A stretch of 64,000 nt of DNA, taken from positions 15,848-79,847 of the forward strand of contig JANWYG010000008.1 in assembly GCA_025057015.1 (NCBI GenBank). The letters are read 5' to 3'. Below the pieces are notes generated by a model, which did no database searches, was not told the origin of the DNA, and worked only from the letters and a program-made list of their open reading frames with translations. The position numbers and the translations under genes were made by a program. This DNA comes from Blastocatellia bacterium (GTDB lineage: Bacteria; Acidobacteriota; Blastocatellia; Chloracidobacteriales; JADJPF01). Shown piece by piece: positions 3,666 through 29,961 of this stretch (positions are counted from its first letter, which is position 1; the number at the start of each line of letters is the position of its first letter).

Positions 3666-6368
3666 ATGGAGAAGCGGGTTTTGATTGAAAGAGTTCTGCC
3701 GATAAGGAAGCTGTCCGAAGAAAGTCGGCGGGAGAAAGCTATTCGTCACGGCCATATCTCTACGCTTCACGTCTGGTGGGCAAGAAAACCTCTGGTTGTC
3801 GCTCGTGCTGCCGTGCTTGGTGCGCTACTTGAGGACGATGAAAATGTTTCGTCGGAGTTGATAGAGAGGTTATGTAAGTGGAAGCTGCATGATGGCAAGC
3901 CTGAAGGGCACAGCCTGCTTGAGCAAGTGAGAGGACTGATTCGGGAGCGTTTTTTGGGGAGACGACCTAAGGTTTTGGATTGTTTTGCCGGAGGAGGCAG
4001 CATCCCGCTGGAAGCGTTACGATTAGGCTGTGACACTTATGCCGTAGATTACAATCCTGTTGCGTATGTTGTTTTGAGAGGAACGATAGAATACCCTCAG
4101 CGGTATGGTAGGCAGCTAGTGGCAGCAGTCAGGCGCTGGAGTGAGTGGGTGTTAGAAAAAGCTGGGAAGGAGCTAGAGTGTTTTTATCCTCGTGTTGGTT
4201 GTGAGACGCCTGTTGCGTACATTTGGCGTCGGACAATTCGATGTCCGAACCCATCATGTGGGGTTGAAGTTCCGCTGACAACTCAATGGTGGTTGGCTAA
4301 GAGGGGAAGAAGGAGAGTGGCGTTGAAACCTATCTTGCGGGGTAATAGAGAAGTAGGTTTTGAATTGGTAGGAGATAAGGAGATAGACTTTGAGCCTTCG
4401 CTAGGGACGGTCAAGCGGGGTAGAGCAGTATGTCTAGCTTGCAATACTTCGATGAGAGGAGATTATGTGAAGGCGGAAGCGCGTGAAGGGCGAATAGGGC
4501 AGCGATTAGTAGCAGTGGCAAGGAAAGTGGATAAGAGGCGAGGGCGTAGCTATCGGCTAGCTGGCGAGGAAGATATAGCTGGTTTTCAGAAAGCAGAGAT
4601 GGCTCTAAAAGAGTTGCTTCGTACTCCTTCGCCTTGGGCGTTTGGGCTGTCTTGGGTGCCACAAGAACCGTCGCGCTTGGTAGGAGCGGGACGACAGCAA
4701 AGTGTTGAGGCAAGTTACGGTTTCTTAGAATGGGGCAAGTTCTTCAACAGTCGGCAGTTGATGGCGTTATGCACCTTTGGAAAGTGGGTACGGGAGGCAT
4801 ACAAGGAGATAGTCAATCAGACAGGCGACTATGAGTTCGCAAAAGCAGTGACTACATATTTGGGATTTGCGGTCGATAAAATGGCTGACCTACTTTCAGT
4901 CCTTACCGGTTGGAAACCTAATGCTGAATGTCCAGTGCACTTATTTGCTCATCACGCAATACCGATGTTGTGGGATTATGCAGAGGCCAATCCGCTTGCT
5001 GGGGCCAGTGCAAGCTGGGCAAGTCAGGTTGAAAGAATGCTTTCCGCACTAACTCTCTGTTTTGTGAACAATAGACGAACGGCGACTACTCATCTTGGCT
5101 CGGCAAATAGGCTTTTTTTTGAGGGAGGGAAGTTTGATGCGGTGGTTATAGATCCGCCATATGCAGATAGCGTACCTTACAGTGACCTGAGCGATTTTTT
5201 CTATGTATGGCTTAGGCGGATAATCGGAGACCTGTATCCAGAAGCTTTTAGTACAGAGCTAGTCCCAAAAGACGAAGAAGCAGTGGTCAATGCTGTGCGA
5301 TTTGGGGGAAAGAAACACGGAGAGCAGATAGCTAAGGCGCATTACCAGCGGCTAATGCGAGAGTCGTTTGCAGAGATCTACCGAGTCCTTAACTCAGAGG
5401 GTGTATGTATAGTGATGTTTAGTCATCGTTCGACTAGCGCTTGGGAGAGGCTAGTGAAAAGTCTTCTGGATGCAGGCCTCTATCCTACAGCTTCGTTTCC
5501 GGTACACACGGAGATGGAGGCATCGACGCATCAGCGAGGCAAGGCCGCAGTGCGCAGCACAGTTGTTATGGCATGCCGACGGCGCTCGGAAAATGCTGGA
5601 ATTGGGTGGTATCGAGAAGTAATGTCGGAGTTACGGCAGGTAGTTTGTGAGAGGCTAAGGGAGTTTTGGAGAGAAGGGATTCGTGGAGCGGACTTTCTCA
5701 TTTCTGCGATAGGTCCTGCTGTGGGCATTTTTGGCAAATATAGAGAAGTCAGACACTTGGATGGGACAGAAGTGAAAGTTGCGGAAGTTTTACAAGAGGT
5801 ACGTAAGGCGGTAGTGGAGTTTACTCTGCAACAGTTAGGGTTTGAGGCATTAGATGAGCCGACGCGTTTTTATATTTTCTACCGATGGGCATACGGGAGT
5901 AAGGAGATAGAATATGACGAAGCGAACAAGCTGGCGAAGGGTTTAGGAGTAGAGTTGAGCGAGATGGAGAGGAGGTATGGTTTGATTAATCGGGATGGAG
6001 ATGAGGTAAGAGTGTTGTCTTTCGAGGAGAGAAAAGGAATTTTGGAACAAGGGTGGAAGGTGAAGCGAGGGAATGAGAGATATGGAGTAGGAGAAAGAAG
6101 CTGTGTGATAGACCAGATACAAATTAGTCTTTTGTTATGGGAATATGGGCAAAGGAGTGAGGTGTTGAATTATTTGGCGAGTTTAGGGGTAAAGGAGGAG
6201 GGGCATAGTTTCTGGCGTGTAGCACAAGCAATTATGGAAGTAGAAGGTGGGGTTGTTGGTGTGGATGGAAGGGTAAGTAGAATAGAAAAGGAAGTTCGAG
6301 TGCTAGCCCAGCTTTTAGGGAGCAAGCAGGGTTTGATACGTGAGATGAGGGCAAAGGTAGTGGGGTAG
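3666..6368 (+). CDS. DUF1156-type (COG1743-like) Zn-ribbon DNA methyltransferase, probable N6-adenine/N4-cytosine class
   Basis: The N-terminus IRHGHISTLHVWWARKPLVVARA is the DUF1156 signature. SAM motif I is VLDCFAGGGSIPLEA (nt 3978-3998). The Cys4 ribbon is CPNPSC...CLAC (nt 4242-4442). Catalytic motif IV is VVIDPPYA, with DPPY at nt 5151-5162. Confidence 0.85.
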   Translation: MEKRVLIERVLPIRKLSEESRREKAIRHGHISTLHVWWARKPLVVARAAVLGALLEDDENVSSELIERLCKWKLHDGKPEGHSLLEQVRGLIRERFLGRRPKVLDCFAGGGSIPLEALRLGCDTYAVDYNPVAYVVLRGTIEYPQRYGRQLVAAVRRWSEWVLEKAGKELECFYPRVGCETPVAYIWRRTIRCPNPSCGVEVPLTTQWWLAKRGRRRVALKPILRGNREVGFELVGDKEIDFEPSLGTVKRGRAVCLACNTSMRGDYVKAEAREGRIGQRLVAVARKVDKRRGRSYRLAGEEDIAGFQKAEMALKELLRTPSPWAFGLSWVPQEPSRLVGAGRQQSVEASYGFLEWGKFFNSRQLMALCTFGKWVREAYKEIVNQTGDYEFAKAVTTYLGFAVDKMADLLSVLTGWKPNAECPVHLFAHHAIPMLWDYAEANPLAGASASWASQVERMLSALTLCFVNNRRTATTHLGSANRLFFEGGKFDAVVIDPPYADSVPYSDLSDFFYVWLRRIIGDLYPEAFSTELVPKDEEAVVNAVRFGGKKHGEQIAKAHYQRLMRESFAEIYRVLNSEGVCIVMFSHRSTSAWERLVKSLLDAGLYPTASFPVHTEMEASTHQRGKAAVRSTVVMACRRRSENAGIGWYREVMSELRQVVCERLREFWREGIRGADFLISAIGPAVGIFGKYREVRHLDGTEVKVAEVLQEVRKAVVEFTLQQLGFEALDEPTRFYIFYRWAYGSKEIEYDEANKLAKGLGVELSEMERRYGLINRDGDEVRVLSFEERKGILEQGWKVKRGNERYGVGERSCVIDQIQISLLLWEYGQRSEVLNYLASLGVKEEGHSFWRVAQAIMEVEGGVVGVDGRVSRIEKEVRVLAQLLGSKQGLIREMRAKVVG

Positions 6369-6379
6369 TGTGGGGGGCT

Positions 6380-6858
6380 GCGGCTTTGTGCAATCTCTGT
6401 GTCCTTTGTGTCTCTGCGGTGAGAAAGAAGGATAAAACCACAGAGGCACAGAGGACACAGAGGGAGCACAAAGGGTTGGTTGGGGAAAAGGAGTAAGCAG
6501 CAGAGCGAGTAGGCAGAGCGACTCTGTGCAATCTCTGTGTCCTTTGTGTCTCTGTGGTGGGGAAGAAAGATAAAACCACAGAGGCACAGAGGACACAGAG
6601 GGAGCACGAAGGGTTGGTTGGGGAAAGGAAGTAAGCAGCAGAGCGAGTAAGCACAGAGCGGCTTTGTGCAGTCTCTGTGTCCTTTGTGTCTCTGTGGTGA
6701 GAAAGAAAGATAAAACCACAGAGGCACAGAGGATACAGAGGGAGCACGAAGGGTTGGTTGGGGGAAGGAAGTAAGCAGCAGAGCGAGTAAGCACAGAGCG
6801 GCTTTGTGCAATCTCTGTGTCCTTTGTGTCTCTGTGGTGAGGAAGAAAGATAAAATCA
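6380..6858 (+). repeat. Tandem array (3 full copies plus 1 truncated) of a 138-140-bp unit, each with a 26-bp-stem hairpin, between the methyltransferase and ATPase genes
   Basis: Unit starts (gtgca) are at 6388, 6526, 6666 and 6806. Arm pairs lie at 6395-6420/6437-6462, 6533-6558/6575-6600 and 6673-6698/6715-6740. The last copy stops inside the loop and right arm at about 6858. The inter-arm spacers are conserved between units. Confidence 0.95.
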
Positions 6859-6913
6859 CAAAACTTTAAGACACTTGGTATATACGAACGGGTATTGCTG
6901 AGAGGTAATCAGG

Positions 6914-9550
6914 GTGATGTCAGAAGGAATCCAGCAGATATGGAGAGTGTGCGAGCTACATTCAGATGTTTTGGCTCATGATCTTGCTCCATCGTCATTT
7001 GCTATTAGTTTGCACCATGTAGAACAAGGTACAGCTGATAGGGATTATGCTGATCCAGAGCGGTTTTTCCAGAAAACTTTTATAACTGCGAGTCTAGGCA
7101 GGCTTTTGGAAGGGGTACTGGCACGCCTTGCTGGTGTAGAAAGGCAAGGTGCACCTATCTTGCAGTTGGAGACACATTTTGGTGGCGGCAAGACCCATGC
7201 GATGACGGCGATATTTCACTTGGTACGTCATCCAGAAGTTGCTGAAGGGGAGAAAGCTTTCCAGCCTATCTTGGCAAACCTCAACATTCGCGCTATCCCC
7301 CGCAATATTAGAGTGGCAATACTTGATGGGCGAGGCTTAGATGTTCGAGAGCGGCGACCTGAACGAGGGATAGTTATTCGAACTCTCTGGGGTGAATTAG
7401 GCTACCGATTAGGACAAAAAGAAGGCTACGCGTTAATGGCAGATGCTGATAGAGAGCGTCTCGCTCCTGGTAGCGAGGTGCTGACCGAGTTTCTTAGACA
7501 CTATCAACCTTTTGTTATCCTGATGGATGAAGTTTTGGAGTACTTGGTCAAGGCTCGCAGCGTTAAGGTTGGAGATAGCAGTCTTATGGAACAAACAGGC
7601 ACTTTTCTAGCTGCATTGACTGCAGCAGTGAGTACATGCTCTCGTGGTGTGCTTATTGCATCTTTGCCTGCTTCCTCGCTAGAAGTTCCGGCTGAAAGTA
7701 GCGAAGCTGCTAGAAGGCTGTTTCAATATGCAAAGAAAGTGTTGGGTCGATTGGAGTTGATAGAGGTGCCAGTGGCTCAAGACGAGATATTTGGAGTTTT
7801 GCGAAAGAGACTGTTTAGTGATATCGGCAATGAGCGCAAGCGCGAGAAGGCTGTTGATGCGCTGCAAGGTTACTACAACAAGTACGCTCACTTTTTCCCA
7901 AAGCGACTCTGTTCACTTGAGTACAAGAAGCGGATGCTTTTGGCTTATCCTTTTCATCCTGTACTAATCGACCTGCTTTATGAGCGCTGGGGACTACAGC
8001 CACAGTTTCAACGGACAAGAGGGATTTTGAGGCTTCTAGCTTTGGTATTGCGTCATTTATGGCGGCATCGTCCTAACTCAGCTCTTCTTGTCCAGCCGCA
8101 TCACCTCGACTTTTCCGATCCCCAGATTCGTGGAGAGATTGTGAAACTCCTAGGTAGCTGCTTTGAACCCGTCATTGTGGGTGATATTTTGCGGAGGGCT
8201 GCTGAGGTAGAACAGAAATTGGGCGGTGATTATGATTTGGAGGCATTAGGCAAGGGCGCTGCTACTTGCGCTTTGCTTTACGGCATTTCGGCAGATGCCT
8301 GGGCTGTCGGGGCAACAGAAGAGGAGATCAGTACTGCTTTACTGAGACCTGACGTCAATCCTGCAATGGTTTCAGAGGTGTTAGGACGGCTGCGCGAAGA
8401 GCTTTGGTATCTTCGTTGCCGTGACAAGCGATATTACTTCACTGCTAGGCCTAACCTTAACAAGATAATCTTAGACTATGAGAGTACCTGTGAGGAAAAG
8501 AGATTAGAACAAGAGTTTGACATTTGGCTACGGCGAGTTGCTGGCAGAAATGAAGGGACATTTCAAGTTGTCGTTGCTACTTTAGAGCCAACGGCCGTGC
8601 CGGACTACCCACGTCCGACACTAGTGGTGCTCAGGCCTGAGGTTGAGAACGACCGAGAATGGATGAAGAAAGCGGTGCAGTATGCAGGCAAAGCCATCCG
8701 CAAGCATAAAAACATGCTAATCTTCTTGGCAGCCTTGCGGGATACCTTTGAAGCGATCCGAAGCGTTCTTAAACGGTGGTGGGCACTTCAATATGTCAGT
8801 AACTCTTGTTTATTCAAGGACTTAAGCAATGAAGACAAAGAGCAGCTCAAAGAGCAGTTGAAAGACAAGGAGGCAGAGCTGGAGACTTTGCTGTTGAAGA
8901 CTTACGCTCGTCTTTACCGTCCGACTTGTGATGGTGTGGAAGAGGTTCTACTGCGTCAAACATCCGAGACGTTCAAGGTAAAGACCTTAAGTCAAATTGT
9001 TGAGTTAGCGTTAAAACAAGAGGGCATCTTGTCGGAAGCGTTATCTCCCGAATTTCTTGTAGCGAGTTTACAAAGCATTTTGGAGCAGCGGAGAGAAGTT
9101 TCCTTACAGCAGGTAGAGATGTTACTTACTAGTGTTCCAGGGAAGCCGATAGTAAAAGATCCTCGAAGGGCATTAACCCGGGCTATTCAGGAAGGAGTGC
9201 GGAAAGGCATTTTTGGCATTCGCATTGGTGACAAGGTTTGTATCGATGAAGAGATTCCGGCAGGTAAGCTTCGTGGACCGAATATAGCTGTTGTTCCACT
9301 TAGTACACCACCTCTACCGTCTCTTCGGCCGACACAACCTCTAACTTTGCGCGTTCGGACAGTTACGCGGATGCTTTACCCGTTGTTGCAAGCAGCGGAC
9401 AAACTGAGGGGAGTAGAAGCATCTGTGGTGTTGGAAGTTCAAGATCAGGCAGGAGGAGAGCTGGCAAAGATACGCGAGGAATTAGACAAGCTCTTCCGAG
9501 ATTATAATTGCACTGTGGAGTGGCGGGAAGAGACATCTGAAAACTGCTAA
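6914..9550 (+). CDS. DUF499-type (COG1483-like) P-loop ATPase
   Basis: Walker A-like LETHFGGGKTHAMTA lies at nt 7178-7195. Walker B is PFVILMDEVLEY (nt 7514-7534). The N-terminal block DPERFFQKTFITASL..LL is typical of DUF499 as I recall it. The start is GTG 6914 or ATG 6917, with a gagagg RBS-like site upstream. Confidence 0.8.
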   Translation: MMSEGIQQIWRVCELHSDVLAHDLAPSSFAISLHHVEQGTADRDYADPERFFQKTFITASLGRLLEGVLARLAGVERQGAPILQLETHFGGGKTHAMTAIFHLVRHPEVAEGEKAFQPILANLNIRAIPRNIRVAILDGRGLDVRERRPERGIVIRTLWGELGYRLGQKEGYALMADADRERLAPGSEVLTEFLRHYQPFVILMDEVLEYLVKARSVKVGDSSLMEQTGTFLAALTAAVSTCSRGVLIASLPASSLEVPAESSEAARRLFQYAKKVLGRLELIEVPVAQDEIFGVLRKRLFSDIGNERKREKAVDALQGYYNKYAHFFPKRLCSLEYKKRMLLAYPFHPVLIDLLYERWGLQPQFQRTRGILRLLALVLRHLWRHRPNSALLVQPHHLDFSDPQIRGEIVKLLGSCFEPVIVGDILRRAAEVEQKLGGDYDLEALGKGAATCALLYGISADAWAVGATEEEISTALLRPDVNPAMVSEVLGRLREELWYLRCRDKRYYFTARPNLNKIILDYESTCEEKRLEQEFDIWLRRVAGRNEGTFQVVVATLEPTAVPDYPRPTLVVLRPEVENDREWMKKAVQYAGKAIRKHKNMLIFLAALRDTFEAIRSVLKRWWALQYVSNSCLFKDLSNEDKEQLKEQLKDKEAELETLLLKTYARLYRPTCDGVEEVLLRQTSETFKVKTLSQIVELALKQEGILSEALSPEFLVASLQSILEQRREVSLQQVEMLLTSVPGKPIVKDPRRALTRAIQEGVRKGIFGIRIGDKVCIDEEIPAGKLRGPNIAVVPLSTPPLPSLRPTQPLTLRVRTVTRMLYPLLQAADKLRGVEASVVLEVQDQAGGELAKIREELDKLFRDYNCTVEWREETSENC

Positions 9551-10102: not shown

Positions 10103-10579
10103 ATGAATCGCAGAGACTTTGCTAAGACAATACTCGGAGCTGCTTTTGCTGGAATAGTGGCAGGAACTGTGTCAGCAGAAGACAAGAAGCCGGAAGAGAA
10201 GAAGGAAGAAAAGAAAGCTGGTCATAGCTGTAGAGGTGAGAAGGCCTCTTGTAAAGGTGAGAAGAAGGCTTCGTGCAAGGGTGAGAAGGCCTCTTGTAAG
10301 GGCGAGAAGGCTTCGTGCAAGGGCGAGAAGGCTTCGTGCAAGGGCGAGAAGGCTTCGTGCAAGGGTGAGAAGGCCTCTTGCAAGGGCGAGAAGGCTTCGT
10401 GCAAGGGTGAGAAGGCCTCTTGCAAGGGCGAGAAGGCTTCGTGCAAGGGTGAGAAGGCCTCTTGTAAGGGCGAGAAGGCTTCGTGCAAGGGTGAGAAGGC
10501 CTCTTGCAAGGGCGAGAAGGCTTCGTGCAAGGGTGAGAAGGCCTCTTGTAAGACTAAGGATAGCTGTAAGTCGGTGTAG
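10103..10579 (+). CDS. Secreted Cys-repeat peptide or small protein (158 aa): Tat-type signal plus 15 CKGEKAS-like heptads; candidate MNIO substrate (RiPP precursor)
   Basis: MNRRDFAKTILGAAFAGIVAGTVSA carries RRxFxK, a hydrophobic core and VSA. A KE-rich spacer follows. Then come CRGEKAS, CKGEKKAS, 13x CKGEKAS, CKTKDS and CKSV, giving 17 Cys. It has a strong SD and lies directly upstream of DUF692/DUF2063 genes. Confidence 0.8.
   Translation: MNRRDFAKTILGAAFAGIVAGTVSAEDKKPEEKKEEKKAGHSCRGEKASCKGEKKASCKGEKASCKGEKASCKGEKASCKGEKASCKGEKASCKGEKASCKGEKASCKGEKASCKGEKASCKGEKASCKGEKASCKGEKASCKGEKASCKTKDSCKSV
10229..10546 (+). repeat. In-frame 21-bp tandem repeat (15 units) encoding the Cys heptads, built from two synonymous unit types
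   Basis: Unit A is aag ggt gag aag gcc tct tgY. Unit B is aag ggc gag aag gct tcg tgc. The order along the array is A, KK-variant, A, B, B, B, A, B, A, B, A, B, A, B, A. Confidence 0.95.
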
Positions 10580-10596
10580 TTTATTCTTTGTTGTGT

Positions 10597-10642
10597 AAAG
10601 GTCGAAGGGAAGTATTTAAAGTTCTTCGACCTTTACTTTTTT
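10597..10642 (+). terminator. Intrinsic terminator or attenuator between the peptide gene and the DUF692 gene
   Basis: aaaggtcgaag (10597-10607) pairs perfectly with cttcgaccttt (10624-10634) across a 16-nt loop, followed by acttttttg. Confidence 0.55.
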
Positions 10643-10655
10643 GAGGTTTTTGCTT

Positions 10656-11498
10656 ATGACGAATCGTTGGAATTTACCTGACTTAGGTCTAGGCGTTGGG
10701 CTTAGGACTGTTCATTATCAGCATATTCTTTCGAACTATCCTAGAGTGGACTGGTTTGAGATCATTTCCGAGAATTTTCTAGATACAGAAGGGCGGCCAA
10801 TGTATGTTCTCGATCAGGTAGCTGAGCGTTATCCCGTGGTGATGCATGGTGTGTCGATGTCTATAGGTAGTACGGATCCGATCAATTTTGAGTATTTGAG
10901 GAAGTTAAAAGCACTCGCAAAGCGGATCAATGCTCCTTGGGTTTCAGATCATCTTTGTTGGACTGGAGTTAGCGGCAAAAACGTACATGATCTTTTGCCT
11001 ATGCCATATAACGAGGAGTCACTCAAGCATACTGTTGAGAGGGTCAAGATAGTCTCAGACTTTTTGGAGCGCCCCTTGGTATTGGAGAATCCGTCGTCAT
11101 ATATAGAATTTGCTAACAGCAGTATGACCGAGTGGGATTTTTTAGCTGCGCTGTTAGAAGAAGCGGACTGTGGAATGTTGCTTGATATAAACAACGTCTA
11201 TGTGAGTTCGTTTAACCACTCGTTTGATCCCAAGCGATATATAGACGCTATACCTGCTGATCGGGTAGTTCAGTATCATTTAGCTGGTCATACGAGCTAT
11301 GGCACGCACATTATAGATACGCACAGCGACTATGTGATAGACGAGGTATGGGGTCTTTATAAGTATGCGAACGAGGTCATAGGCAGTAGGGCGACGTTGT
11401 TAGAGTGGGATGACGACATACCTGATTTCGACACTGTGCATAACGAAGTGCTTAAGGCGCAGGAATATAAGAAGCAGGGGGTTCTTGTCTATGGTTAG
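10656..11498 (+). CDS. DUF692 / MNIO family (multinuclear non-heme iron oxidative) peptide-modifying enzyme, MbnB/BufB/HvfB-like
   Basis: Family blocks are present: LGLGVGLR..H, DWFEIISENF, VMHGVSMSIGS, WVSDHLCW, DLLPMPY, LVLENPSSY, MLLDINNVYVS and YHLAGHT. I prefer ATG at 10656 (MTNRWN...) over the track's TTG at 10641, which lies inside the terminator tail. Confidence 0.85.
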   Translation: MTNRWNLPDLGLGVGLRTVHYQHILSNYPRVDWFEIISENFLDTEGRPMYVLDQVAERYPVVMHGVSMSIGSTDPINFEYLRKLKALAKRINAPWVSDHLCWTGVSGKNVHDLLPMPYNEESLKHTVERVKIVSDFLERPLVLENPSSYIEFANSSMTEWDFLAALLEEADCGMLLDINNVYVSSFNHSFDPKRYIDAIPADRVVQYHLAGHTSYGTHIIDTHSDYVIDEVWGLYKYANEVIGSRATLLEWDDDIPDFDTVHNEVLKAQEYKKQGVLVYG

Positions 11499-12339
11499 TG
11501 AGATTCCGCTTGCTGTAATGCAGCAGTGGATGCAGGCAGTAATAATGGCCAAGGGAGATGATCTCGAGGCGATACATTCACCGGAAGCGACTAAGTTTCT
11601 TTCACCACAACAAGTAGAGTATTTTATCTTGCCGTCCAGAACGCTTGAGCCTATCGAGCGTTTGCACATTTACCGAAGGATGTATATCTTGAGGTTGTGT
11701 GAAGCATTGGCTTCGGATTTTGAAGCATTTAGCGACTATGTTGGTAAGGACAAGTTTGAAGAGTTAGTTACTGACTACGTAGCTATTTATCCTTCTACGA
11801 GTTACAGCCTAAACCCACTTAGTTACCGGTTTCCTGAGTTTCTACGCTCTCGCAAAGATATTGAGCCGAAGCGGTTTCTTGTAGAGCTTGCTGAGTTAGA
11901 GCTTGCTATAACTCAAGTTTTCGACATGCCACAAAGTCCGTTGTTATCTTCAGAGCAGGTTAGTGCGGTACCGCCCGAAGCCTGGGAGAGGGTGATTCTT
12001 CGCCCGATCAAGGCATTGCGACTGCTGAAGTTTGACTATCCTGTAAATGACTACCTTACTGCTTTTAGGAACGAAAGCGTGCTACCGGAGATACGTAGAA
12101 AGAACAACTATGTACTAGTATATCGTCCTGGCTATAGTATGAGGCGTGAGTCATTAAGCAGGCAGGCATATTTGCTGTTGAGGCACTTACTAGATGGTAA
12201 GCCGATAGCTCTTGCTATAGAGAGTTGTATTGGGCAGGGCGTTAGCAGGAAGCTCTTACAGGAGAAGCTATTTTACTGGTTTAGGGATTGGGTGGCCTCT
12301 GGGGTATTTAGCTCTTTGGAGTGTTCAGCTAGAGATTAG
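11491..12339 (+). CDS. DUF2063-type partner protein (MbnC/BufC/HvfC-like peptide-binding subunit)
   Basis: Its position immediately after DUF692 is the canonical pairing. The start ATG at 11491 overlaps the DUF692 stop by 8 nt (atggttag). Size is about 280 aa. The domain call rests mainly on context and general N-terminal resemblance. Confidence 0.65.
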   Translation: MVSEIPLAVMQQWMQAVIMAKGDDLEAIHSPEATKFLSPQQVEYFILPSRTLEPIERLHIYRRMYILRLCEALASDFEAFSDYVGKDKFEELVTDYVAIYPSTSYSLNPLSYRFPEFLRSRKDIEPKRFLVELAELELAITQVFDMPQSPLLSSEQVSAVPPEAWERVILRPIKALRLLKFDYPVNDYLTAFRNESVLPEIRRKNNYVLVYRPGYSMRRESLSRQAYLLLRHLLDGKPIALAIESCIGQGVSRKLLQEKLFYWFRDWVASGVFSSLECSARD

Positions 12340-12358: not shown

Positions 12359-13195
12359 TTAGGTAGATTTTGGATCGCACAAACTTCCTTCAAATACAAT
12401 CTCGGCAGGACCTTGAAAACAGAGTTGTTCATCGCTGTCGAGAGCTATCGTAAGAGTTCCGGCAGGCATTTCTACTTTGACTGGAGGCGTGACTAAGCCT
12501 TTGAGGATTGCTGCCATAGCAGCAGCAGAAGCTCCAGTGCCTGAAGATGCCGTAATGCCTACGCCTCGTTCCCATAGTCGCACTTCTATACTGGTGGAAG
12601 AGTTTGTTTTCCTTATGAACTCGACGTTAGTACGCGAGGGGAAAAGAGGATGCTGTTCTAGCTGGGTGCCTATAGTTTTCCAGTCGAAGTTAAAATCCTC
12701 TACGAAAACACAGCAGTGGGGATTGCCTACAGAAAGTGCCGTGACGAGTACTTGTCCCGAAGGCAGTTGAACGGGGTAATCTATTACGCGTTCGAGCGAG
12801 TCAGGTAGTGCTATGGGTATTAGAGAAGGTGTGAAGGTCGGTTTGCCGATAGTTACTTGGAACTGGTAAGTATAGTTGTTATTAGAGATGAGTTTGAGTG
12901 TTTTTTTTCCCGTGGGCGTCGTTATATCTAGCGATGGAGTTTTGCCATATTTATGGCAGATAAATGCCGCTACGCAGCGAATGCCGTTGCCGGACATTTC
13001 TGCTTCGCTGCCGTCAGCATTGAAGATTTTCATTTGCCATCCTTCCTCGAGTCGCTTTACTACAAGTAATCCGTCAGCACCGACGCCAGTATGTCTGAGG
13101 CAGAGCCTACGTGCTAGCCCTGGATAGTCTACGGAGTCATCTTGCTCGAGGACTATAAAGTCGTTTGCTAGGCCGTGTATCTTGACGAATTTCAT
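12359..13195 (-). CDS. dapF: Diaminopimelate epimerase homolog with both catalytic Cys positions occupied by Ser
   Basis: Colinear with E. coli DapF as I recall it: MKFVKIHGLANDF, RHTGVGADGLLVV, IFNADGSEAEMSGNG, GNPHC, ERGVGITASSGTGA. I prefer the start at 13195 (MKFVK), which forms an ATGA overlap with the upstream kinase stop. Confidence 0.85.
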   Translation of the reverse strand: MKFVKIHGLANDFIVLEQDDSVDYPGLARRLCLRHTGVGADGLLVVKRLEEGWQMKIFNADGSEAEMSGNGIRCVAAFICHKYGKTPSLDITTPTGKKTLKLISNNNYTYQFQVTIGKPTFTPSLIPIALPDSLERVIDYPVQLPSGQVLVTALSVGNPHCCVFVEDFNFDWKTIGTQLEQHPLFPSRTNVEFIRKTNSSTSIEVRLWERGVGITASSGTGASAAAMAAILKGLVTPPVKVEMPAGTLTIALDSDEQLCFQGPAEIVFEGSLCDPKST

Positions 13196-14121
13196 ACACT
13201 TTTGCGTTCGAATTCTATCTCTTCGAAGTGCATTATGCGCTTGAAGTATTTGAAACGTTCGTTTATCTCGCGATAAGTAAGACGAAGCATTCGATCGCAA
13301 CCGAACTCTTCCACGTTGAATGAAGCCATAACGGAAGCATAAATCATGGCTCTGCGCATGTCATTTTCGTCTGTGGAATTAACAGCTGCCAGGTATCCTA
13401 TGAAACCCCCGGCAAAAGTATCACCGGCACCGGTTGGATCGAAGACGTCTTCTGTAGGAAATGCTGGCATAGCAAAGTAGGACTCTTGGGAGAACATAGC
13501 TGCACCGTATTCACCTCTTTTGACGACGAGGCGCTTTGGACCGAAGGAGAGAATCTTTCTAGCTGCTTTTATAAGGTTAGCTTCGCGGGCGAGTTCTCGT
13601 GCTTCTTCGTCGTTAATAATTAGGAGATCTACAAATTGTAATAACTCTCGTAGTTCGTCAGGAGTACTTTCTATCCAGTAGTTCATAGTGTCGAGCGCAG
13701 TAAATCTCGGGCGAGTGTTCTTAAAAACCTCCAGTTGAAGTTTAGGGCTGATGTTTCCTAGGAACAAGAAGGGAGTATCTTTAAATTCCTCTGGAATTTT
13801 GGGATCGAAGTCGGCAAAAACGTTGAGGTGAGTGTAGATTGTCTCCCGCGTATTGAGATCATATCCGTATTTACCTTTCCATCTGAAAGTCTTGCCTGGT
13901 CTACGTTCTAAGCCGGCTGTATTGATCTTGCGAGACTTAAAGACTGCTAACTGCTCGTCTGTGAAGTCTTCACCTACCACTGCAACGACATTGACCGAAG
14001 TGAAAAAAGACGCTGCTATAGCAAAATGAGTACACGAGCCGCCGAGTATCTGCTCGCGGCTGCCGAAGGGCGTTTCTACGGCGTCAAAAGCTATCGACCC
14101 AACTGCTAATATAGACATCAA
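13192..14121 (-). CDS. PfkB-family carbohydrate/nucleoside kinase
   Basis: Has the C-terminal DPTGAGDTFAGGF motif, an N-terminal GG dipeptide region and a ribokinase-like length. Confidence 0.8.
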   Translation of the reverse strand: MMSILAVGSIAFDAVETPFGSREQILGGSCTHFAIAASFFTSVNVVAVVGEDFTDEQLAVFKSRKINTAGLERRPGKTFRWKGKYGYDLNTRETIYTHLNVFADFDPKIPEEFKDTPFLFLGNISPKLQLEVFKNTRPRFTALDTMNYWIESTPDELRELLQFVDLLIINDEEARELAREANLIKAARKILSFGPKRLVVKRGEYGAAMFSQESYFAMPAFPTEDVFDPTGAGDTFAGGFIGYLAAVNSTDENDMRRAMIYASVMASFNVEEFGCDRMLRLTYREINERFKYFKRIMHFEEIEFERKSV

Positions 14122-14526
14122 TTACTCCTTATTCTCTCGGGAATTGGAGGCGGTATTAGAAAAGCCAAATAATTTCTTAGTCTGTTTCGCGTATTGACTT
14201 TCAGGGAACTCGTCTACTAGTTTTTTAGCAAAATTTATAGCATCATCTTTCTTTCCTAGCTTGTCAAGCGAGACAGCAAGTAGCCACAATACTTCATCGA
14301 TTTTTGAGTATTCGGGATATGTGTAAACAATCTCAAACAGCCTGTCAGTGACGCCTTTGTAGGCCTTTTTCTTGAAATAAAATCTAGCTACTTCCAGATT
14401 ATGTTTAGCTTCTCGTTCAAGCTCTGGATTTTTAGGCATTCTTAAGGGTTGTTGTTGGAGAGTTCCCTGTGTTGCGGCGTATATGTGACAGGTTATGAGG
14501 AGAAGTAGAATCAGAGCCTTCTTCAT
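14122..14526 (-). CDS. Small secreted TPR-like protein (BamD/YfiO-like or YbgF-like)
   Basis: Has a signal peptide (MKKALILLLLITCHIYA) and TPR-like helices (ARFYFKKKAYKGV..., LAVSLDKLGKKDDAINFAKKLVDEFPES). Confidence 0.45.
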   Translation of the reverse strand: MKKALILLLLITCHIYAATQGTLQQQPLRMPKNPELEREAKHNLEVARFYFKKKAYKGVTDRLFEIVYTYPEYSKIDEVLWLLAVSLDKLGKKDDAINFAKKLVDEFPESQYAKQTKKLFGFSNTASNSRENKE

Positions 14527-17823: not shown

Positions 17824-20253
17824 TTAGTGATTTTTCGTGGCTCTTACCTGTTGCGATAGGTCTTTCTCGGCAATATCTCGGAGCTTATTTATCGCTTCAG
17901 GTTTGCCTATACGTAGCAGAGCTTCTGCTGCTGCCGAACGTACTTTCTCGTCCTTGTCTAAGCTGAGCATCTTTAAGATATCTAGACTGTCAGAACAGTT
18001 AAGGTATTTTAACACTGTTGCTACGCCAGCCCTGCGCGTGGGATTCTTGTCTTTAGCTGCTTTTTCTAGCTGCGGAATTATTTCTCTCCCTAATTTGGCA
18101 AGACTAGCTGCTACGGCATCCCTTACATAGAATCGCTCATCGCTGAGAGCTTCTATAAGATACGCTGCAGCGGTTATGTCGCCGATCTCGCCTAGCACGA
18201 TAGCAGCTGAAGCCTTGTCTTGCCCTGTAGATGCTTGAAGTAGGTTACATAGCGATGCAACTGCCGGTTTACCTATCGATGCTAAAGCTTGAGCTATAGC
18301 TTGTTTGTTGCTGTTTTCACTTACTAGAGCCTTTACTAATAGATCAACTGCTGGAGCACCTATAGAGACGAGGGCATTTCTGGCATAGTATCTGACAGGA
18401 GCTGCTTTATCTTGTAGCAGCTCTACCATCCGCGGTACGGCTTGAACTAAACGCCACTCACCTAGGATGCGTGCCGCATATGCTCGTACACGCCAGCGAT
18501 TTGACTTGGTCAGCTCTAACAAGCGCTTGGCAACTTCGCTGTCTGTAGGTAATAAAAGCATCTGTTCTGCTGCTAGACCTGCCAGGGTGCTGTCAGATTC
18601 TAGTATTTCGGTCAGCGCAACAAGTGCCCTTTTATGCTTCATCTGCCCTAGGGCCATGATTGCAGCAAACCTCACTCCTTGAGAGCTGTCTCTCAGTGCT
18701 TGAACGATGCGTTCTAAGTGTTCTGGGCTTTCGAGCTTGCCTAGTGCTGTCAGAGCGGCTGTTCTTACTGCTGGATGCTCATCGAACGAAGCTATCAGCA
18801 AAGCTGAATCAAGATCCTTGTACTTCATCTTTCCACAAAGTTCGGCAGCGTCAGCCCTAACACGCCAGTCCTCTGAAGATAAGCGCCGTTCGATGTGGAT
18901 GCGGTCAATGCCTAGCTTTTCTAGAGCAGAACGGGTAGTGTCGGATACAAACTCGACTTCATCATCCAGTAACGGCAGCAACATTTCCACAAACTGCGTG
19001 CCTTTATGCTCAGCTGCTATGTTTACTGCTTCCTGCCGTATCCGTGGATCTGGATGAGATAACGCAACTAGTAGTACCTCTACGGGAGAACCTTCGACAA
19101 GACGGCCGTACCAGCGTAACGCTTGCTGCTGATCGTACCAATAAGATGATTCGCCTTTGATGCTTCTTACCAAGTTGTCTAAAGTTACATCTAGCGCCGC
19201 TAATACCGGCAGTAGCTCGGACTTTCGCCTTTCGGAAGATATTAGCTGCTCAACTGCCCAGGCAGACTTGTATCTTGTCAATCCCTCAATTAAGTGTTGT
19301 CTGATAGACTCATTACCCCTGCCGAGAGCATTGAGCAAGCCTTCTAGGGCTTCTTCAGAGTTACGTTCAGCCAAAGCTTCGATTATCTTGAGCTGTAAGC
19401 TTTCATCTTCGAGCTCTAGAAGTAGCTTCGATAAGGCTGTGGTGGCAGTCCTGCCTACTGTTTTACATAATGCAGAAACTGCTGCTTTCTGCAATCTAGG
19501 ATCACCTTCCTTTGCAAAAGAAGCAATTAGTTCTACTGATTGAGGATCGCCTAGTAGGCAGATCGCCAACTTTAGGCGCAAGTCATACGGCGCAGGAACA
19601 CTTGCAAGGCTACTAACTAACGGCTGTAGATACTCGAACTTTCCAAGCAGATAAGCTGCTGCCCAGTAAGCTGCATCAGTCGGAGTTTCAGCAAGTAGGC
19701 TTAAAGCTTTTTGACCTTTTCTGCTTGCTAAAGCAAAGGTCACTTCCCATCTGACCCTGGGCGCCCTATCCGACTTCAGTTTGTCAAGTAGTTGGAACGC
19801 TAGCTCGTCATCTGGAAGCAGGGCAGTTGTTTTTGCTACCTGCTGACGCACGAAAGCGTCTTCATCTTCGGCTAAGCTTGAGAGTAGACCGTAAACTTCT
19901 GAGAGGTTCTCTAAACTGCAAGCCAGATTACCTAGGGCTAAGGCTGCGTTGCCTCTTACAAACCAGTGACTATCGGTTGCTAAGCGAGGCAACTCTGCTC
20001 GTAGCTCGTTTGTTATTAACCCAGCTGCGCGTCCACGTAGTACCCAATCAGAATCTCTCGTAGCCGCAAGTAGCAGTGGCTGTGCACGTTTGGCATTTCG
20101 TTCTACAAGTAATGGCAACAGTTTGAAGCGTTCTTGTGGTTCTGATTGATAGCGTCGCTCTAGCTCGGCAAAGTCTTGTGCTTGTACGAGCGCTAATATG
20201 CACAGCAGAAAGTTAATTCTCAACGCGAGTCCAACTGCCATATATTTCTCCAA
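17824..20253 (-). CDS. Secreted HEAT-repeat (PBS-lyase HEAT-like) protein, about 805 aa
   Basis: About 30-aa repeats recur (..VR..AA.ALG.....AV..L...L.D..). It has an N-terminal signal-like segment. The true start may be the ATG at 20241. Confidence 0.7.
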   Translation of the reverse strand: MEKYMAVGLALRINFLLCILALVQAQDFAELERRYQSEPQERFKLLPLLVERNAKRAQPLLLAATRDSDWVLRGRAAGLITNELRAELPRLATDSHWFVRGNAALALGNLACSLENLSEVYGLLSSLAEDEDAFVRQQVAKTTALLPDDELAFQLLDKLKSDRAPRVRWEVTFALASRKGQKALSLLAETPTDAAYWAAAYLLGKFEYLQPLVSSLASVPAPYDLRLKLAICLLGDPQSVELIASFAKEGDPRLQKAAVSALCKTVGRTATTALSKLLLELEDESLQLKIIEALAERNSEEALEGLLNALGRGNESIRQHLIEGLTRYKSAWAVEQLISSERRKSELLPVLAALDVTLDNLVRSIKGESSYWYDQQQALRWYGRLVEGSPVEVLLVALSHPDPRIRQEAVNIAAEHKGTQFVEMLLPLLDDEVEFVSDTTRSALEKLGIDRIHIERRLSSEDWRVRADAAELCGKMKYKDLDSALLIASFDEHPAVRTAALTALGKLESPEHLERIVQALRDSSQGVRFAAIMALGQMKHKRALVALTEILESDSTLAGLAAEQMLLLPTDSEVAKRLLELTKSNRWRVRAYAARILGEWRLVQAVPRMVELLQDKAAPVRYYARNALVSIGAPAVDLLVKALVSENSNKQAIAQALASIGKPAVASLCNLLQASTGQDKASAAIVLGEIGDITAAAYLIEALSDERFYVRDAVAASLAKLGREIIPQLEKAAKDKNPTRRAGVATVLKYLNCSDSLDILKMLSLDKDEKVRSAAAEALLRIGKPEAINKLRDIAEKDLSQQVRATKNH

Positions 20254-22669
20254 CGTGGACTTTAGCAGGTAGGAAGGTCGATCTCAATACCTCATCTTCA
20301 TCTACAAAGAAAGCACGCAAGCTTTTGTCTATAGGCACAGCAAGGATAAAGTAACTCGCCGCTCGGCGCTTCGTGGCTGCGCTAACGTAGAGCCTTATCT
20401 CGTAACCTGCTATTTCTCCGCTTTCAAGCTGTTGTCTTGCTAGTCCTTCGCTGACAAGCTGGTCTAGCGTAGCATAGCTACCACGCCTGCCGAAATAACT
20501 TCTTTGCGCTGTTACTAGTGCCTTAAGGGTCTCCAATATTGCGGTTTCATCACCAACAGTTGGATCTAGTTGCAGAGTAGGTCTGGTCGGTAATGTAATA
20601 TCTAGAGGTAAGGGTGAGATTATGAGAGAGGGTAGGTTGTGCTCTATATCGGCTATAGAGATTGCTGCCTGTGGTAGTTGCGTAACTTCAGGCAGTTTCG
20701 GAACATCTGTGACTGTTGATGTTGGCATTGGTATTGCCATAGTTTCTGCCGAAGCTTCGAGTTCAAAGGTGCTTGACTCTACAGTAGTTGGTAAAGATGC
20801 CAGGGCAACTTCTTGAAATATGCGGTTCGGCTGAACTGGTTCTAGCAGAGCCTCAATCAGGTTTGGTGCTAGCATAGCTAGTTGTGGCTCGACTTCTGGT
20901 GGGCTTTCTAGCGGTGGAAGCAAAACTACAAGTTTGTGCGGTGCTGGCTGGATTGCTAGTGTAGCAACAGGTGGGATTTCTTCAAAGTTTAGTAAGACGG
21001 CAGTAGGTAGTTGATGTGCCGGTAGCCCTTTGGCCTTCAGAATAGCTGCTGCGAAGTTGCGTACAGTTATATCTGAGTCTTCCGAAACTGTGCGTTGTAG
21101 ACGAGCTAGGATTTCGGGACGATTGCTGTTTGCAAGTAGTTCTAGGGCTAGCAGGCGATTGTCTGCAATAGGGTCTTCTAGACCGTCGATGATTAGTTCT
21201 AGTTTGCTAATAGTAGCTGCTATCAGGAGTGCCCTGCGGCGTGTTTGAGCATTACTTGTCTGTGCTGCCGTCTCAAGTGAAGAGAGAGCTTTTGGAGCTT
21301 GGCGAAAGTAAGCTTCAAGGGCATCGGCTGAAAGTTGTCGTTTTTGAGAGAAGATATTTGCAAGTACGTCGTCTGGATCTAGACGAGCTAGCTCTGTGGC
21401 TGCTGCCAGGCGTATCTCTATGCTGTTGTCTGAGAGCTTTTCTACGAGTATAGGCAGGGAGCGCTTCGGATCGAGTTTTGCTAGCACAGATATTATCGAC
21501 GTCTGGATGCTATCTCTGTCTTTAGCAAGTAGTTCTAGAAGAGGTTCGAATGCCTGAACGTCGCCTATATTTCCGAGCGCTAGGATAGCAGCACGTCTTA
21601 ATTCAGCATCGCTATCTCGCAGAATTCGTATTAGGGATTCTGTGGCACGTCGGTCACCTATACGACCTAGTGCAATGGTGGCACTGATCTTGACTAATCG
21701 ATTTGTTTCATCAAGTAACGCTACGAGCGGTTCTATTGCCTTTGGGTCACCTATAGCAGCAAGTGCTTCGGCGGCTCGTATCTTGACACGTGGTTCGTCG
21801 AGTCGCAGTGTGTCGATAAGTGGCTCGATAGCTTGACGACTGCCAAGTTTGCCAAGAGCATGTGCTGCGTTAGTACGTACGAACGGGTCGAGATCGGTTA
21901 GTGCTTCTATGAGAATATGTATGGCACGTTCGTCACGACTACGTCCAAGAGATTCGGCTGCCACTGCCCGCACCATGCGGTCTTCATCTTTCATTGCTGT
22001 AACAAGTGCTTCGAATGAACTATCGTCAATACTTAGCTGGCCTAGTGCTGCTGCTACCGCTGTGCGTACATAATTGCTTTTATCTTTGATTGCAGATACA
22101 AGAGCTGTTTTTGCGCTTGGGTCTGCTAAAGCACCCAAAGCTTCGGCTGCTGATGTACGGACTTGTGTGTCAGGGTCATTTAGTAATAGAGCAGTCAAGT
22201 GTATGGTTGCCCGATTTGAGCCTATTCGTCCCAAAGCTGTGGCAGCAGAGGCTCTTGGGAATGGTTTAGGATCTTTTAGTAGTTCAAGTAGTGCAGGTAC
22301 GGCTTTGGGATCGGCTATACGTCCAAGTGCGATTGCTGCGTTCGAACGCAGGTCCTCGTCTAGATCAGAGAGTGCTGCTATCAGGTGCGGAACGGCAGTG
22401 CTTGATTTCAGCTCTCCTAGCGAGAGCGCCGCTTGTGCAGCAACCATTCGATCAGGATCTTTTAGCGCGCCAAGTAATCCTTCTATTACGGCCTCGCTTG
22501 TACCGCTTCGGCCTAGTTCTTCAGCTGCTTTGCGCCGTATTCTTCTGTCTTCAGACTTAAGCTCGGAAAGTAATTTCGCCTGTCGGCTAGGTACTTGTGT
22601 TAAGTCTTGTGCTTGCAGCGGCGTATTTGCTGCGAAGATTAGGATTAGTAAAAAAGCAAGAGTTTTCAT
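20213..22669 (-). CDS. Secreted HEAT-repeat protein with Pro-rich linker and distinct C-terminal domain, 818 aa
   Basis: Has a signal peptide (MKTLAFLLILIFAANTPLQA) and more than 12 HEAT-like units (DPDRMVAAQAALSLGELKSSTAVPHLIAAL...). The last ~130 aa are not HEAT-like. Confidence 0.7.
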   Translation of the reverse strand: MKTLAFLLILIFAANTPLQAQDLTQVPSRQAKLLSELKSEDRRIRRKAAEELGRSGTSEAVIEGLLGALKDPDRMVAAQAALSLGELKSSTAVPHLIAALSDLDEDLRSNAAIALGRIADPKAVPALLELLKDPKPFPRASAATALGRIGSNRATIHLTALLLNDPDTQVRTSAAEALGALADPSAKTALVSAIKDKSNYVRTAVAAALGQLSIDDSSFEALVTAMKDEDRMVRAVAAESLGRSRDERAIHILIEALTDLDPFVRTNAAHALGKLGSRQAIEPLIDTLRLDEPRVKIRAAEALAAIGDPKAIEPLVALLDETNRLVKISATIALGRIGDRRATESLIRILRDSDAELRRAAILALGNIGDVQAFEPLLELLAKDRDSIQTSIISVLAKLDPKRSLPILVEKLSDNSIEIRLAAATELARLDPDDVLANIFSQKRQLSADALEAYFRQAPKALSSLETAAQTSNAQTRRRALLIAATISKLELIIDGLEDPIADNRLLALELLANSNRPEILARLQRTVSEDSDITVRNFAAAILKAKGLPAHQLPTAVLLNFEEIPPVATLAIQPAPHKLVVLLPPLESPPEVEPQLAMLAPNLIEALLEPVQPNRIFQEVALASLPTTVESSTFELEASAETMAIPMPTSTVTDVPKLPEVTQLPQAAISIADIEHNLPSLIISPLPLDITLPTRPTLQLDPTVGDETAILETLKALVTAQRSYFGRRGSYATLDQLVSEGLARQQLESGEIAGYEIRLYVSAATKRRAASYFILAVPIDKSLRAFFVDEDEVLRSTFLPAKVHVGEIYGSWTRVEN

Positions 22670-29700: not shown

Positions 29701-29942
29701 GGCTGTATCTGCACGATTTCTATAGGTGATCCGTTGACAAGCGTGCCATTTGATTTCGAGAGGTTTTGTATCCAAAAATCCCCTTCAATGATCGCTATGC
29801 CTGCATGTAAACGCGACACGGATGGATGGTTGAGCAGCAAGTCATTTTCCGTACTCGATCCTATGGTTAGGTTATCACTTTCTATGACTAGTTCATCAGT
29901 TACTATGTCTTTGCGTCTTACTATGAACTTTGCCTCTCGCAT
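26757..29942 (-). CDS. Multidomain redox protein: FHA domain, TM, 7x CxxCH multiheme region, TM, 4Fe-4S ferredoxin motif, FAD/NAD(P)-dependent oxidoreductase
   Basis: FHA block (residues ~5-95): GSSTENDLLLNHPSVSRLHAGI...NLSKSNGTLVNG. Heme motifs: CSACH, CIGCH, CVDCH, CFDCH, CTDCH, CAVCH, CNSCH (residues 322-517, nt 28392-28979). TM segments lie at about residues 258-278 and 573-591. Fe-S motif: CIGCHSCILVCP. Dinucleotide motifs: VAIVGIGPGG and IVVVGAGNSA. Confidence 0.8.
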   Translation of the reverse strand: MREAKFIVRRKDIVTDELVIESDNLTIGSSTENDLLLNHPSVSRLHAGIAIIEGDFWIQNLSKSNGTLVNGSPIEIVQIQPGDTVQIGVFILKIDLDNEDIIIEVERTVDSVAAGNLGNRLLGDPRAAMAAGKTALLSQDILKVLEGSGFKTAPLAKASGRLSGLLGTTGRLQRGMTGLLTSILALPEEEQKRFQQTMDAFWERRKLAQTGGAQKLADKSELHPKEIAPEYKQFNLHLGKKRFNWRPTADLIRPWPKGFLLTFGSFILLIGAIAIFFWEDLYSPGNVSAPHAATESDRINLASFLPESGILLAAKTTAGNKCSACHAAAGPMQKTCIGCHTTEHFNPQNAIAAHNAAGLACVDCHTEHKGTDFRPATVARTMCFDCHKANPSHPKARKQTGEPLGIPHGGRLGYPVVNGEWKWTEPINKKIQIPDAEILDPKGKFHFVHMRGDRNNTARCTDCHTSLDKPKEIDQKKCAVCHTVEYDPQGNPQDIEDVQKLTSLAGTFDIDCNSCHIQHSESPALVATLRPAGGRGRKLTSEQVYKVDTVYRGGSAWEWTSFAAKFGGLTPAGWAMLLSLLPISIIGFVLFDSRRKRKTQDKIKGKEIEIGKSRSEPADIKYALKWDQEWIKRAEEAAKLRPVPQPIINYSTCIGCHSCILVCPQDVLGFDEQEHHAIVVNYEQCMEDTGCQQACPTVPQSCVLINTKKTIREAPKPLRKGASEGFETEHVEGIYLVGDVSGVPLIRNAIKEGRIAVEKIAEKLKAEGRVPAAEYDVAIVGIGPGGISATARAAELGLSYIALEQSCKYSTIAEKYPAGKYVAFNPFNPTDPPLGAIRLEGPGDLKENMLRWWDEACAKLKLKINEYEGCTEIVKEKGFFIVKTKKNPAGYKARKVVLALGNAGEPRKLGVPGEVEGRVEYRLQDPSAYKGKHIVVVGAGNSAVEAAVDLTGKRQPDGTVIFPKEGANEVTLVIRSDFPKDLTLENKMWVYYCIDHGKIKAYFGAAIKEIREKEVVLAKTRDDQIIGTIPNDIVFALVGSIPPKEFLQKVGIKYSGDDKKK

Positions 29943-29961
29943 TTCTTACTTTCCTTTTTGT

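Follow-up and report, generated by a model that had tools for sequence, protein, structure and literature searches.

Both catalytic cysteines of diaminopimelate (DAP) epimerase, DapF, are replaced by serine in the product of a dapF-like gene from a Blastocatellia bacterium (Acidobacteriota), and it was confirmed that this product is a full-length, two-domain DapF homologue. The gene lies within a stretch of 64,000 nucleotides of contig JANWYG010000008.1, which was analyzed at its full length and is called the window below. The Ser/Ser pair is a property of a whole clade, comprising Acidobacteriota classes and Methylomirabilota, and is neither a one-off nor the mark of a decaying paralogue. In our judgment, with a probability of roughly 55%, the gene is an ordinary, vertically inherited Acidobacteriota dapF orthologue, the product of which would epimerize DAP with a hydroxyl/alkoxide pair. 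DapF is the textbook cofactor-independent racemase, in which a thiolate, although a weak base, abstracts an alpha-proton of very low acidity, and it is an antibiotic target that has been addressed with thiol-reactive DAP analogues. A review from 2021 and a structural study from 2025 (PMC12039745) present the Cys/Cys pair as the rule for DapF, and a description of a natural Ser/Ser DapF was not found in a full-text literature search. Either the two-thiol textbook mechanism is not universal, or the Ser/Ser bacteria obtain meso-diaminopimelate otherwise and keep a DAP-binding protein for another purpose.

According to the listing of open reading frames (ORFs) and the sequence, the gene is located on the minus strand, with its ATG at position 13195 and its stop codon at 12359-12361. 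The frame extends mechanically to a TTG at 13300, which lies 109 nt inside the upstream gene for a PfkB-family kinase and would add 35 residues (313 aa). This start was rejected because all homologues begin at the MKF... methionine, so that the ATG at 13195 is the true start. The ATG overlaps the TGA of the PfkB ORF (13192-14121) as ATGA, an overlap that had already been described in an earlier annotation made without database searches (the sequence-only reading) and is indeed present in the sequence. A phmmer (HMMER) search of all PDB chains gave end-to-end alignments with DapF structures, which placed Ser68 and Ser218 exactly in the two catalytic Cys columns. The references for these columns were the enzymes from Anabaena (9mro, the best PDB match with 5.6e-54), Arabidopsis (3ejx), and E. 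coli (5ygu/4ijz). The first Ser is found in the motif FNADGSEAEM-S-GNG, in which ...EM-S-GNG lies under ...M/Q-C-GNG, and the second in ERGVGITAS-S-GTGA, in which ...TAS-S-GTG lies under ...A-C-G[ST]G. The catalytic thiol/thiolate pair (E. coli C73 and C217), a membership feature of DapF, is therefore missing from the window protein. C74 (GIRC) and C161/C162 (GNPHCC) were considered as the real catalytic cysteines. They were rejected because they align with cysteines that are also conserved in Cys/Cys enzymes, and no other Cys of the window protein aligns to either catalytic column in the PDB alignments or in the alignment A1, in which both columns contain Ser in 56/56 sequences. The sequence-only reading had itself named these cysteines as candidates that would speak against it, and the alignment places none of them at the catalytic positions. 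Its central claim, a colinear DapF homologue with both catalytic thiols changed to Ser, was thus borne out by the PDB alignments and by the invariance of both residues in the 120 closest homologues. A further suggestion, the loss of the second Cys of the helix motif C-G-[ST]-G-A-C, holds for the window protein, which reads GTGAS, but not for the clade, in which this position is S, C, or A.

Family assignment and fold were those of a DapF. The window protein scored 236 bits with the NCBIfam DapF equivalog TIGR00652 (cutoff 114.65), and Pfam matched PF01678 (DAP_epimerase) in two stretches (2.7e-50). With NF038284, the Chlamydia-type bifunctional DapF/glutamate racemase, the score was 72.3 bits against a cutoff of 350. 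An AlphaFold (AF2) model, built from a 56-sequence alignment, had a predicted local distance difference test score (pLDDT) of 94.8 and a predicted template modeling score (pTM) of 0.91. A Foldseek comparison with the closed Anabaena DapF 9mro gave a template modeling (TM) score of 0.91 and an rmsd (root mean square deviation) of 1.8 A, and the top 26 matches were all DapF or DcsC. The model shows the pseudo-symmetric fold of two domains, in which the active site lies between the N-termini of two helices, and it places Ser68 and Ser218 at these N-termini, like the catalytic Cys residues of canonical enzymes.

The substrate pocket is retained as well. In Anabaena DapF, DAP is contacted by N13, N66, G76, N77, N164, N197, E215, R216, G225, and T226 (PMC12039745). 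All ten contacts are identical in the window protein, i.e. N11, N59, G69, N70, N158, N190, E209, R210, G219, and T220. N11, N59, G69, N70, N190, E209, R210, and G219 are more than 90% conserved in both Ser/Ser and Cys/Cys representatives, while N158 is invariant in alignment A1 and the two groups alike have Ser or Thr in the column of T220 (G-[ST]-G). H160 is kept in A1, and so is E66, which forms a salt bridge with R210 in the plant and cyanobacterial type. The motifs G-N-G and G-[ST]-G at the catalytic helix N-termini remain invariant in the alignments. Columns that differ between the two groups are q207 (F/I/L vs V/T), q243 (T/M vs L), q77 (A vs K/R), S217, and a two-residue insert at q110-111.

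Next, the distribution of the Ser/Ser pair was quantified. The exact window protein (P0001) is public as the 'diaminopimelate epimerase' of a Blastocatellia/Acidobacteriota metagenome-assembled genome (MAG). Among 5.8 billion proteins, Ser was present at both positions in 120/120 best matches (43-61% identity), those with names being assigned to Acidobacteriota, Blastocatellia, Pyrinomonas, Terriglobia, and Candidatus Saccharicenans/Aminicenantes. Ser/Ser was also found in 70/92 related loci; both counts answer in the affirmative the question, raised by the sequence-only reading, whether this form is conserved in related Acidobacteriota. An exhaustive survey covered 1.84 billion representatives at 50% identity and yielded 19,684 matches with E<=1e-3, of which 2,074 had E<=1e-30. 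The best 149 new representatives comprised 49 Ser/Ser, 93 Cys/Cys, and 6 mixed sequences (3 Cys/Ser and 3 Ser/Cys) as well as 1 truncated sequence; over 269 sequences, the catalytic pair was Ser/Ser in 169, Cys/Cys in 93, and mixed in 6. In over 300 sequences, neither catalytic position was ever Ala, Gly, or Thr. When 38 divergent Ser/Ser representatives were made into a profile, it recovered 119 new proteins, 90 of them Ser/Ser. Some of these 90 were labelled as MAGs of Rokubacteria or NC10 (Methylomirabilota), 'Deltaproteobacteria', or 'Zetaproteobacteria', with the motifs EKSGNG and ASG[ST]S, and Cys/Cys matches from Moorella, Clostridia, and Peptococcaceae were interleaved with them. A contig scan with non-conserved peptides of the window protein yielded four distant loci, all of them Cys/Cys. 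TIGR00652 was matched by 38/38 of the divergent Ser/Ser representatives; all exceed the cutoff region, and annotation pipelines therefore call all of them DapF.

Two groups of homologues deviated from the common patterns. The mixed-pair proteins are P0141, P0211, and P0216 (Cys/Ser) as well as P0163, P0166, P0186, and the product of locus L084 10001-10810 (Ser/Cys). Their nearest neighbors by distance are Cys/Cys sequences, and they could be transitional forms or unidirectional enzymes. In the Rokubacteria/NC10-type proteins, Ser/Ser homologues from outside Acidobacteriota, P0394, P0399, P0404, P0405, P0410, and P0412, the second helix motif G-[ST]-G has become G-S-S or G-T-S, and a Lys precedes the first Ser (EKSGNG), so that the active-site cap is further remodelled.

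Neighbor-joining trees were calculated without the catalytic columns. A single pure clade held 161/169 Ser/Ser sequences in one tree and 95/102 in another. The deep topology was unstable in 100 bootstraps, with monophyly of all Ser/Ser sequences in 1/100 and a median largest pure clade of 49/102. Because of this poor support, the number of Ser/Ser origins cannot be stated. Two proteins, P0187 (Pyrinomonadaceae, 38% identity) and P0031 (Pyrinomonas, 45%), were considered as paralogues. This was rejected, as both genes are located a few genes upstream of a DUF3108 gene, and the two look like orthologues in different genera.

The codons offered an independent view of the two positions. The sample comprised 70 Ser/Ser genes, from the window and the fetched loci, with 143 readable catalytic codons. 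All 143 were TCN, with all four third bases in use, and AGY was found in 0/143, whereas AGY accounted for 29.7% of the other Ser codons in the same genes (n=1016). For the conserved Ser of DG-S-E both codon families are used. A TCY codon is one step away from the Cys codons TGY, while a change to AGY has to go by way of a residue other than Ser. This points to an origin from Cys through a single transversion and to selection that has since kept Ser at both sites without a break. A naive binomial calculation gave P 1e-22 for the codon bias, but it ignores shared ancestry and is no true probability.

The gene setting is that of a housekeeping gene, partly envelope-related, and not that of a specialized pathway. 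Among 145 genes within two positions on either side of a Ser/Ser dapF, the Pfam counts were 14-16 for HtrA/PDZ, 15 for thymidylate kinase, 12 for PfkB, and 7 for peptidase S13. The housekeeping and envelope genes in the neighborhood include tmk, htrA, a PBP4-type peptidase S13 (D-Ala-D-Ala carboxypeptidase), PBP1, and PG_binding_1. Neither a specialized catabolic cluster nor a conserved partner gene was present among these 145 genes, and a second dapF was not found within 10 kb on either side in any of the 92 loci. The proposal of the sequence-only reading that the protein is an inactive or repurposed paralogue does not fit a gene that behaves as a vertically inherited orthologue in such a context and lacks a second copy nearby. 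Its other option, a lineage-specific variant chemistry, fits best with the conservation across classes, the intact DAP-binding residues, and the codon selection for Ser.

We infer that the protein is catalytically active on DAP, with the two Ser residues as base and acid, and that it constitutes the sole route of the cell from LL-DAP to meso-DAP. The canonical reaction would be kept and only the acid/base pair swapped. One carboxylate of the substrate would be held by the two helix N-termini (G69/N70 and G219/T220), the alpha-ammonium group by N11, and the distal L-center by N59, N158, N190, E209, and R210. The alpha-carbon would then be flanked by Ser68 and Ser218, one as an alkoxide and the other as a hydroxyl, in place of the thiolate and the thiol. 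That mixed pairs are almost absent agrees with a reversible 1,1-proton transfer, for which two matched groups are needed. In C. glutamicum DapF, an inactivating disulfide between the catalytic residues has reportedly been observed (PMC5296763). It is plausible but speculative that the benefit of the Ser/Ser pair is the avoidance of such an oxidative disulfide, at the cost of a slower enzyme that slow growers can tolerate. An enzyme of low turnover could still be sufficient; M. tuberculosis DapF has a turnover of about 0.15 s-1 (2021 review). There is also a precedent for Ser as one of two bases, because 4-hydroxyproline 2-epimerase with Ser93/Cys255 still performs two-base epimerization (PMC4113996). 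Terriglobales isolates grow with N2 as their only source of nitrogen in a minimal medium containing only vitamins (PMC13362970), and therefore they make lysine; the Terriglobia-labelled DapF proteins in the homologue set are Ser/Ser. For the wider statement that a cofactor-independent epimerase without thiols produces the meso-diaminopimelate of Acidobacteriota, a major bacterial phylum, and of Methylomirabilota as well, we regard the odds as about even.

Several observations weigh against an active hydroxyl-based epimerase. Cys-to-Ser changes are engineered into DapF and similar racemases precisely in order to impair catalysis (PMC12039745). Chloracidobacterium, also a member of the Blastocatellia, is auxotrophic for lysine (PMC4376005, PMC8245765), and therefore the status of the DAP pathway varies within Blastocatellia. 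The columns specific for the clade (q207, q243, q77, S217, and the q110-111 insert) were searched for a compensating acid or base, and none was convincing. Genes of the dap or lys type were not among the 25 commonest neighbor families within two positions of Ser/Ser dapF. Lastly, a co-resident Cys/Cys DapF, the meso-DAP dehydrogenase Ddh, or a DapF2 of the pyridoxal phosphate (PLP) type elsewhere in the genome would remove the need for activity.

The strongest alternative, which we nevertheless regard as unlikely, is a repurposed enzyme that binds DAP or an analogue such as lanthionine or another L-configured diamino-dicarboxylate and catalyzes something other than the reversible LL/meso epimerization. 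This could be a slow or unidirectional conversion or a different proton transfer, with meso-DAP supplied by Ddh, the PLP-dependent DapF2, or another racemase. Such a change of function would agree with the hindrance of catalysis by Cys-to-Ser in DapF (PMC12039745) and with one-base swaps that change the reaction in related folds: Cys/Thr yields trans-3-hydroxyproline dehydratase (PMC4113996), and with a Thr/Cys pair EcL-DER, an aspartate/glutamate racemase, works in one direction only (PMC8142540). Lanthionine is tolerated by the DapFs of plants and cyanobacteria, which are the nearest relatives with solved structures (PMC12039745). Other sources of meso-DAP are also on record, as the non-homologous DAP epimerase DapF2 exists and E. 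coli grows normally without dapF, from which the authors infer that another racemase supplies meso-DAP (bioRxiv 10.1101/2024.10.14.618325). Because the deletion has no growth defect (same source), growth complementation of an E. coli dapF mutant is uninformative in the form proposed in the sequence-only reading. However, the residues that recognize both ends of DAP are kept as strictly as in true DapFs, and no specialized gene neighborhood accompanies the gene. Both positions switched together and stayed Ser, which is more in keeping with an acid and a base that are matched to each other than with catalysis by one base. DAP also lacks the beta leaving group that a reaction of the dehydratase type would need, which leaves the analogy with lyases and dehydratases, also drawn in the sequence-only reading, weak.

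Still less probable is a catalytically dead DAP-binding protein with a non-enzymatic role as a sensor, regulator, or partner, by analogy with the stimulation of RppH by E. coli DapF. Both thiols are gone, and according to the titles of papers E. coli DapF moonlights with the RNA pyrophosphohydrolase RppH (PDB 6d13, which was among the structure matches). But binding alone would not require Ser specifically, and Ala, Gly, and Thr are missing from the two positions in the surveyed sequences. The unbroken codon selection for Ser, the invariant G-N-G and G-[ST]-G motifs, and the lack of a conserved partner gene among the neighbors also argue against a mere binder. An artefact of sequencing or assembly, or a gene copy in decay, can be dismissed as already refuted: nothing beyond the unusual residues favors it, while the ORF is intact, the model is of high confidence, the identical protein is in public records (P0001), and hundreds of independent assemblies show the same state, with codons that vary synonymously.

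Comparison with characterized enzymes showed where the putative hydroxyl-based epimerase agrees with canonical DapF (E. coli, H. influenzae, Anabaena 9mro, Arabidopsis 3ejx; EC 5.1.1.7) and where it departs from it. Length, the two PF01678 domains, and the fold (TM 0.80-0.91) are alike, the identity over the structural alignments is 34-40%, and neither the DAP contacts nor the motifs G-N-G and G-[ST]-G differ. The E-M loop before the first catalytic residue is shared with plant and cyanobacterial DapF. In contrast, the window protein lacks the thiol/thiolate pair, cannot form a catalytic disulfide, and offers inhibitors of the aziridino-DAP type no thiol to attack, and it has the clade-specific changes at q207, q243, and q77 and the two-residue insert. 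The engineered H. influenzae variants C73S and C217S (PDB 2q9h and 2q9j), which were among the sequence and structure matches, likewise carry Ser in place of a catalytic Cys on the same fold. Each of them has one substitution, made in the laboratory to hinder catalysis (PMC12039745), whereas in the window protein both Ser residues are natural and conserved in the clade.

Other racemases are more distant. DcsC, HisR, and PddB, members of the DapF family that act on other substrates, are presented in the literature as cofactor-independent racemases of the thiol-based class. O-ureidoserine racemase DcsC (7vdy) has the same fold (9.8e-34 by sequence, TM 0.85-0.87), and so do the histidine racemase HisR (9cr6) and the 2,4-diaminobutyrate racemase PddB, but all three are further away than true DapFs, and the window protein keeps the DAP-specific residues of the distal site. 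Structures of the proline racemase superfamily showed only 12-18% identity to the model (E ~1e-13 to 1e-14), far below the DapF matches, so that the protein does not belong to that branch. Within it, 4-hydroxyproline 2-epimerase with Ser93/Cys255 (UniProt B9K4G4) has one Ser base only and a different substrate. Trans-3-hydroxyproline dehydratase (Cys/Thr) and EcL-DER (Thr/Cys) are also cofactor-independent racemase-type enzymes with a natural change of a catalytic Cys to a hydroxyl residue, but only one residue is changed, to Thr, and the reaction becomes a dehydration or unidirectional. The likeness to hydroxyl variants of the proline racemase superfamily (Ser/Cys 4HypE and Cys/Thr t3HypD) is one of analogy of mechanism only.

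The Ser/Ser clade is large, ancient, and strictly conserved, and Acidobacteriota are among the most abundant soil phyla. If the hydroxyl chemistry is true, the two-base amino acid racemases would gain their first natural Ser/Ser member, with an intrinsic resistance to oxidation and to DapF inhibitors that target thiols, and there would be consequences for mechanism, enzyme engineering, redox robustness, and the inhibitor spectrum. If meso-DAP comes from elsewhere, the automated annotation as 'diaminopimelate epimerase' and the reconstruction of the pathway would be affected, because the TIGR00652 scores are far above the cutoff. Data on the peptidoglycan diamino acid of Acidobacteriota were not found in the literature search.

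The genes upstream of dapF in the window are included in Table 1. The PfkB gene and dapF are probably co-transcribed. The kinase scores below every NCBIfam equivalog cutoff, and PDB 3kd6 is an uncharacterized structural-genomics entry named 'Carbohydrate kinase, PfkB family'. The order histidine kinase - YfiO-like - PfkB - dapF is repeated in the relatives L001 and L004 (61% and 46% identity). Loci of the Terriglobia type have the order PNP_UDP_1 - PfkB - 530-aa protein - dapF, and those of the Saccharicenans type tmk - htrA - dapF - lon, with PBP1 nearby and PfkB absent. The 530-aa protein is conserved between PfkB and dapF in L002 and L009 (6340-7932), without a Pfam match in L002 and with a weak match to DUF6020 in L009; in the same two loci, the PNP_UDP_1 phosphorylase upstream of PfkB suggests a nucleoside-salvage block beside dapF. 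The window, in which the automated ORF detection had missed PfkB, was excluded from the count of neighbors. Of the 47 other Ser/Ser loci with at least 1.5 kb of upstream DNA, 8 had a PfkB orthologue immediately upstream of dapF, and 10 had it about 1.65 kb upstream with a single gene in between. Because the intergenic distances range from 2 to 175 nt elsewhere, the ATGA coupling is particular to the window genome. The link to PfkB, which the sequence-only reading had pointed out as an unusual context for dapF, thus has little functional weight: an orthologue is near in 18/47 loci, it is absent in Aminicenantes-type loci, and the overlap is not conserved. A role of the kinase as a functional partner was rejected, as the synteny is partial and the kinase has no link to DAP, and the arrangement was treated as inheritance of gene order.

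Table 1. Coordinates of the dapF-like gene, its two catalytic-column codons, and the adjacent upstream genes in the window
Feature	Position	Strand	Characteristics
dapF-like gene	12359..13195	-	278 aa + stop; DAP_epimerase domain present twice; Ser at both catalytic positions
Ser218 codon TCA	12542..12544	-	Second catalytic Cys column (E. coli C217 / Anabaena C224); N-terminus of helix 219-231
Ser68 codon TCC	12992..12994	-	First catalytic Cys column (E. coli C73 / Anabaena C75); N-terminus of helix 69-83
PfkB-family kinase gene	13192..14121	-	TGA overlaps dapF ATG; Pfam PfkB 1.6e-30; 4.2e-99 to PDB 3kd6
Small YfiO/TPR-like lipoprotein gene	14122..14526	-	Directly upstream of PfkB; Pfam YfiO 1.9e-10 and TPR_6

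On the other side of dapF, a convergent group of genes is located on the plus strand (10103-12339). The first encodes a 158-aa protein with a signal peptide and about 14.5 tandem repeats of 21 nt (10235-10542), which encode GEKASCK. It is followed by the gene for an MbnB/TglH/ChrH (DUF692) enzyme (10641-11498, Pfam 1.5e-108) and then by that for a DUF2063/HvfC-like protein (11410-12339). This trio looks like a multinuclear-iron-oxidase cluster for a ribosomally synthesized and post-translationally modified peptide (bufferin- or methanobactin-like) with a repetitive Cys-containing precursor. It also adjoins dapF in the 61%-identity relative L001 (10830-12946).

Three further regions of the window contain unusual genes. 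On the plus strand (3666-9550), two large genes next to each other code for a 900-aa DUF1156 protein with a methylase-like N-terminus and an 878-aa DUF499 protein, which may form a restriction- or defense-type module. On the minus strand (17824-22669), two consecutive proteins of about 810 aa each consist almost entirely of HEAT/PBS-lyase repeats (HEAT_2 1.6e-78 and 2e-103). Also on the minus strand (26757-32484), a 1061-aa protein is a fusion of FHA, cytochrome c3-like, 4Fe-4S dicluster, and pyridine-nucleotide-disulfide oxidoreductase domains, and it is encoded beside an 840-aa protein with cNMP-binding and 4Fe-4S domains, an unusual architecture of redox and signaling domains.

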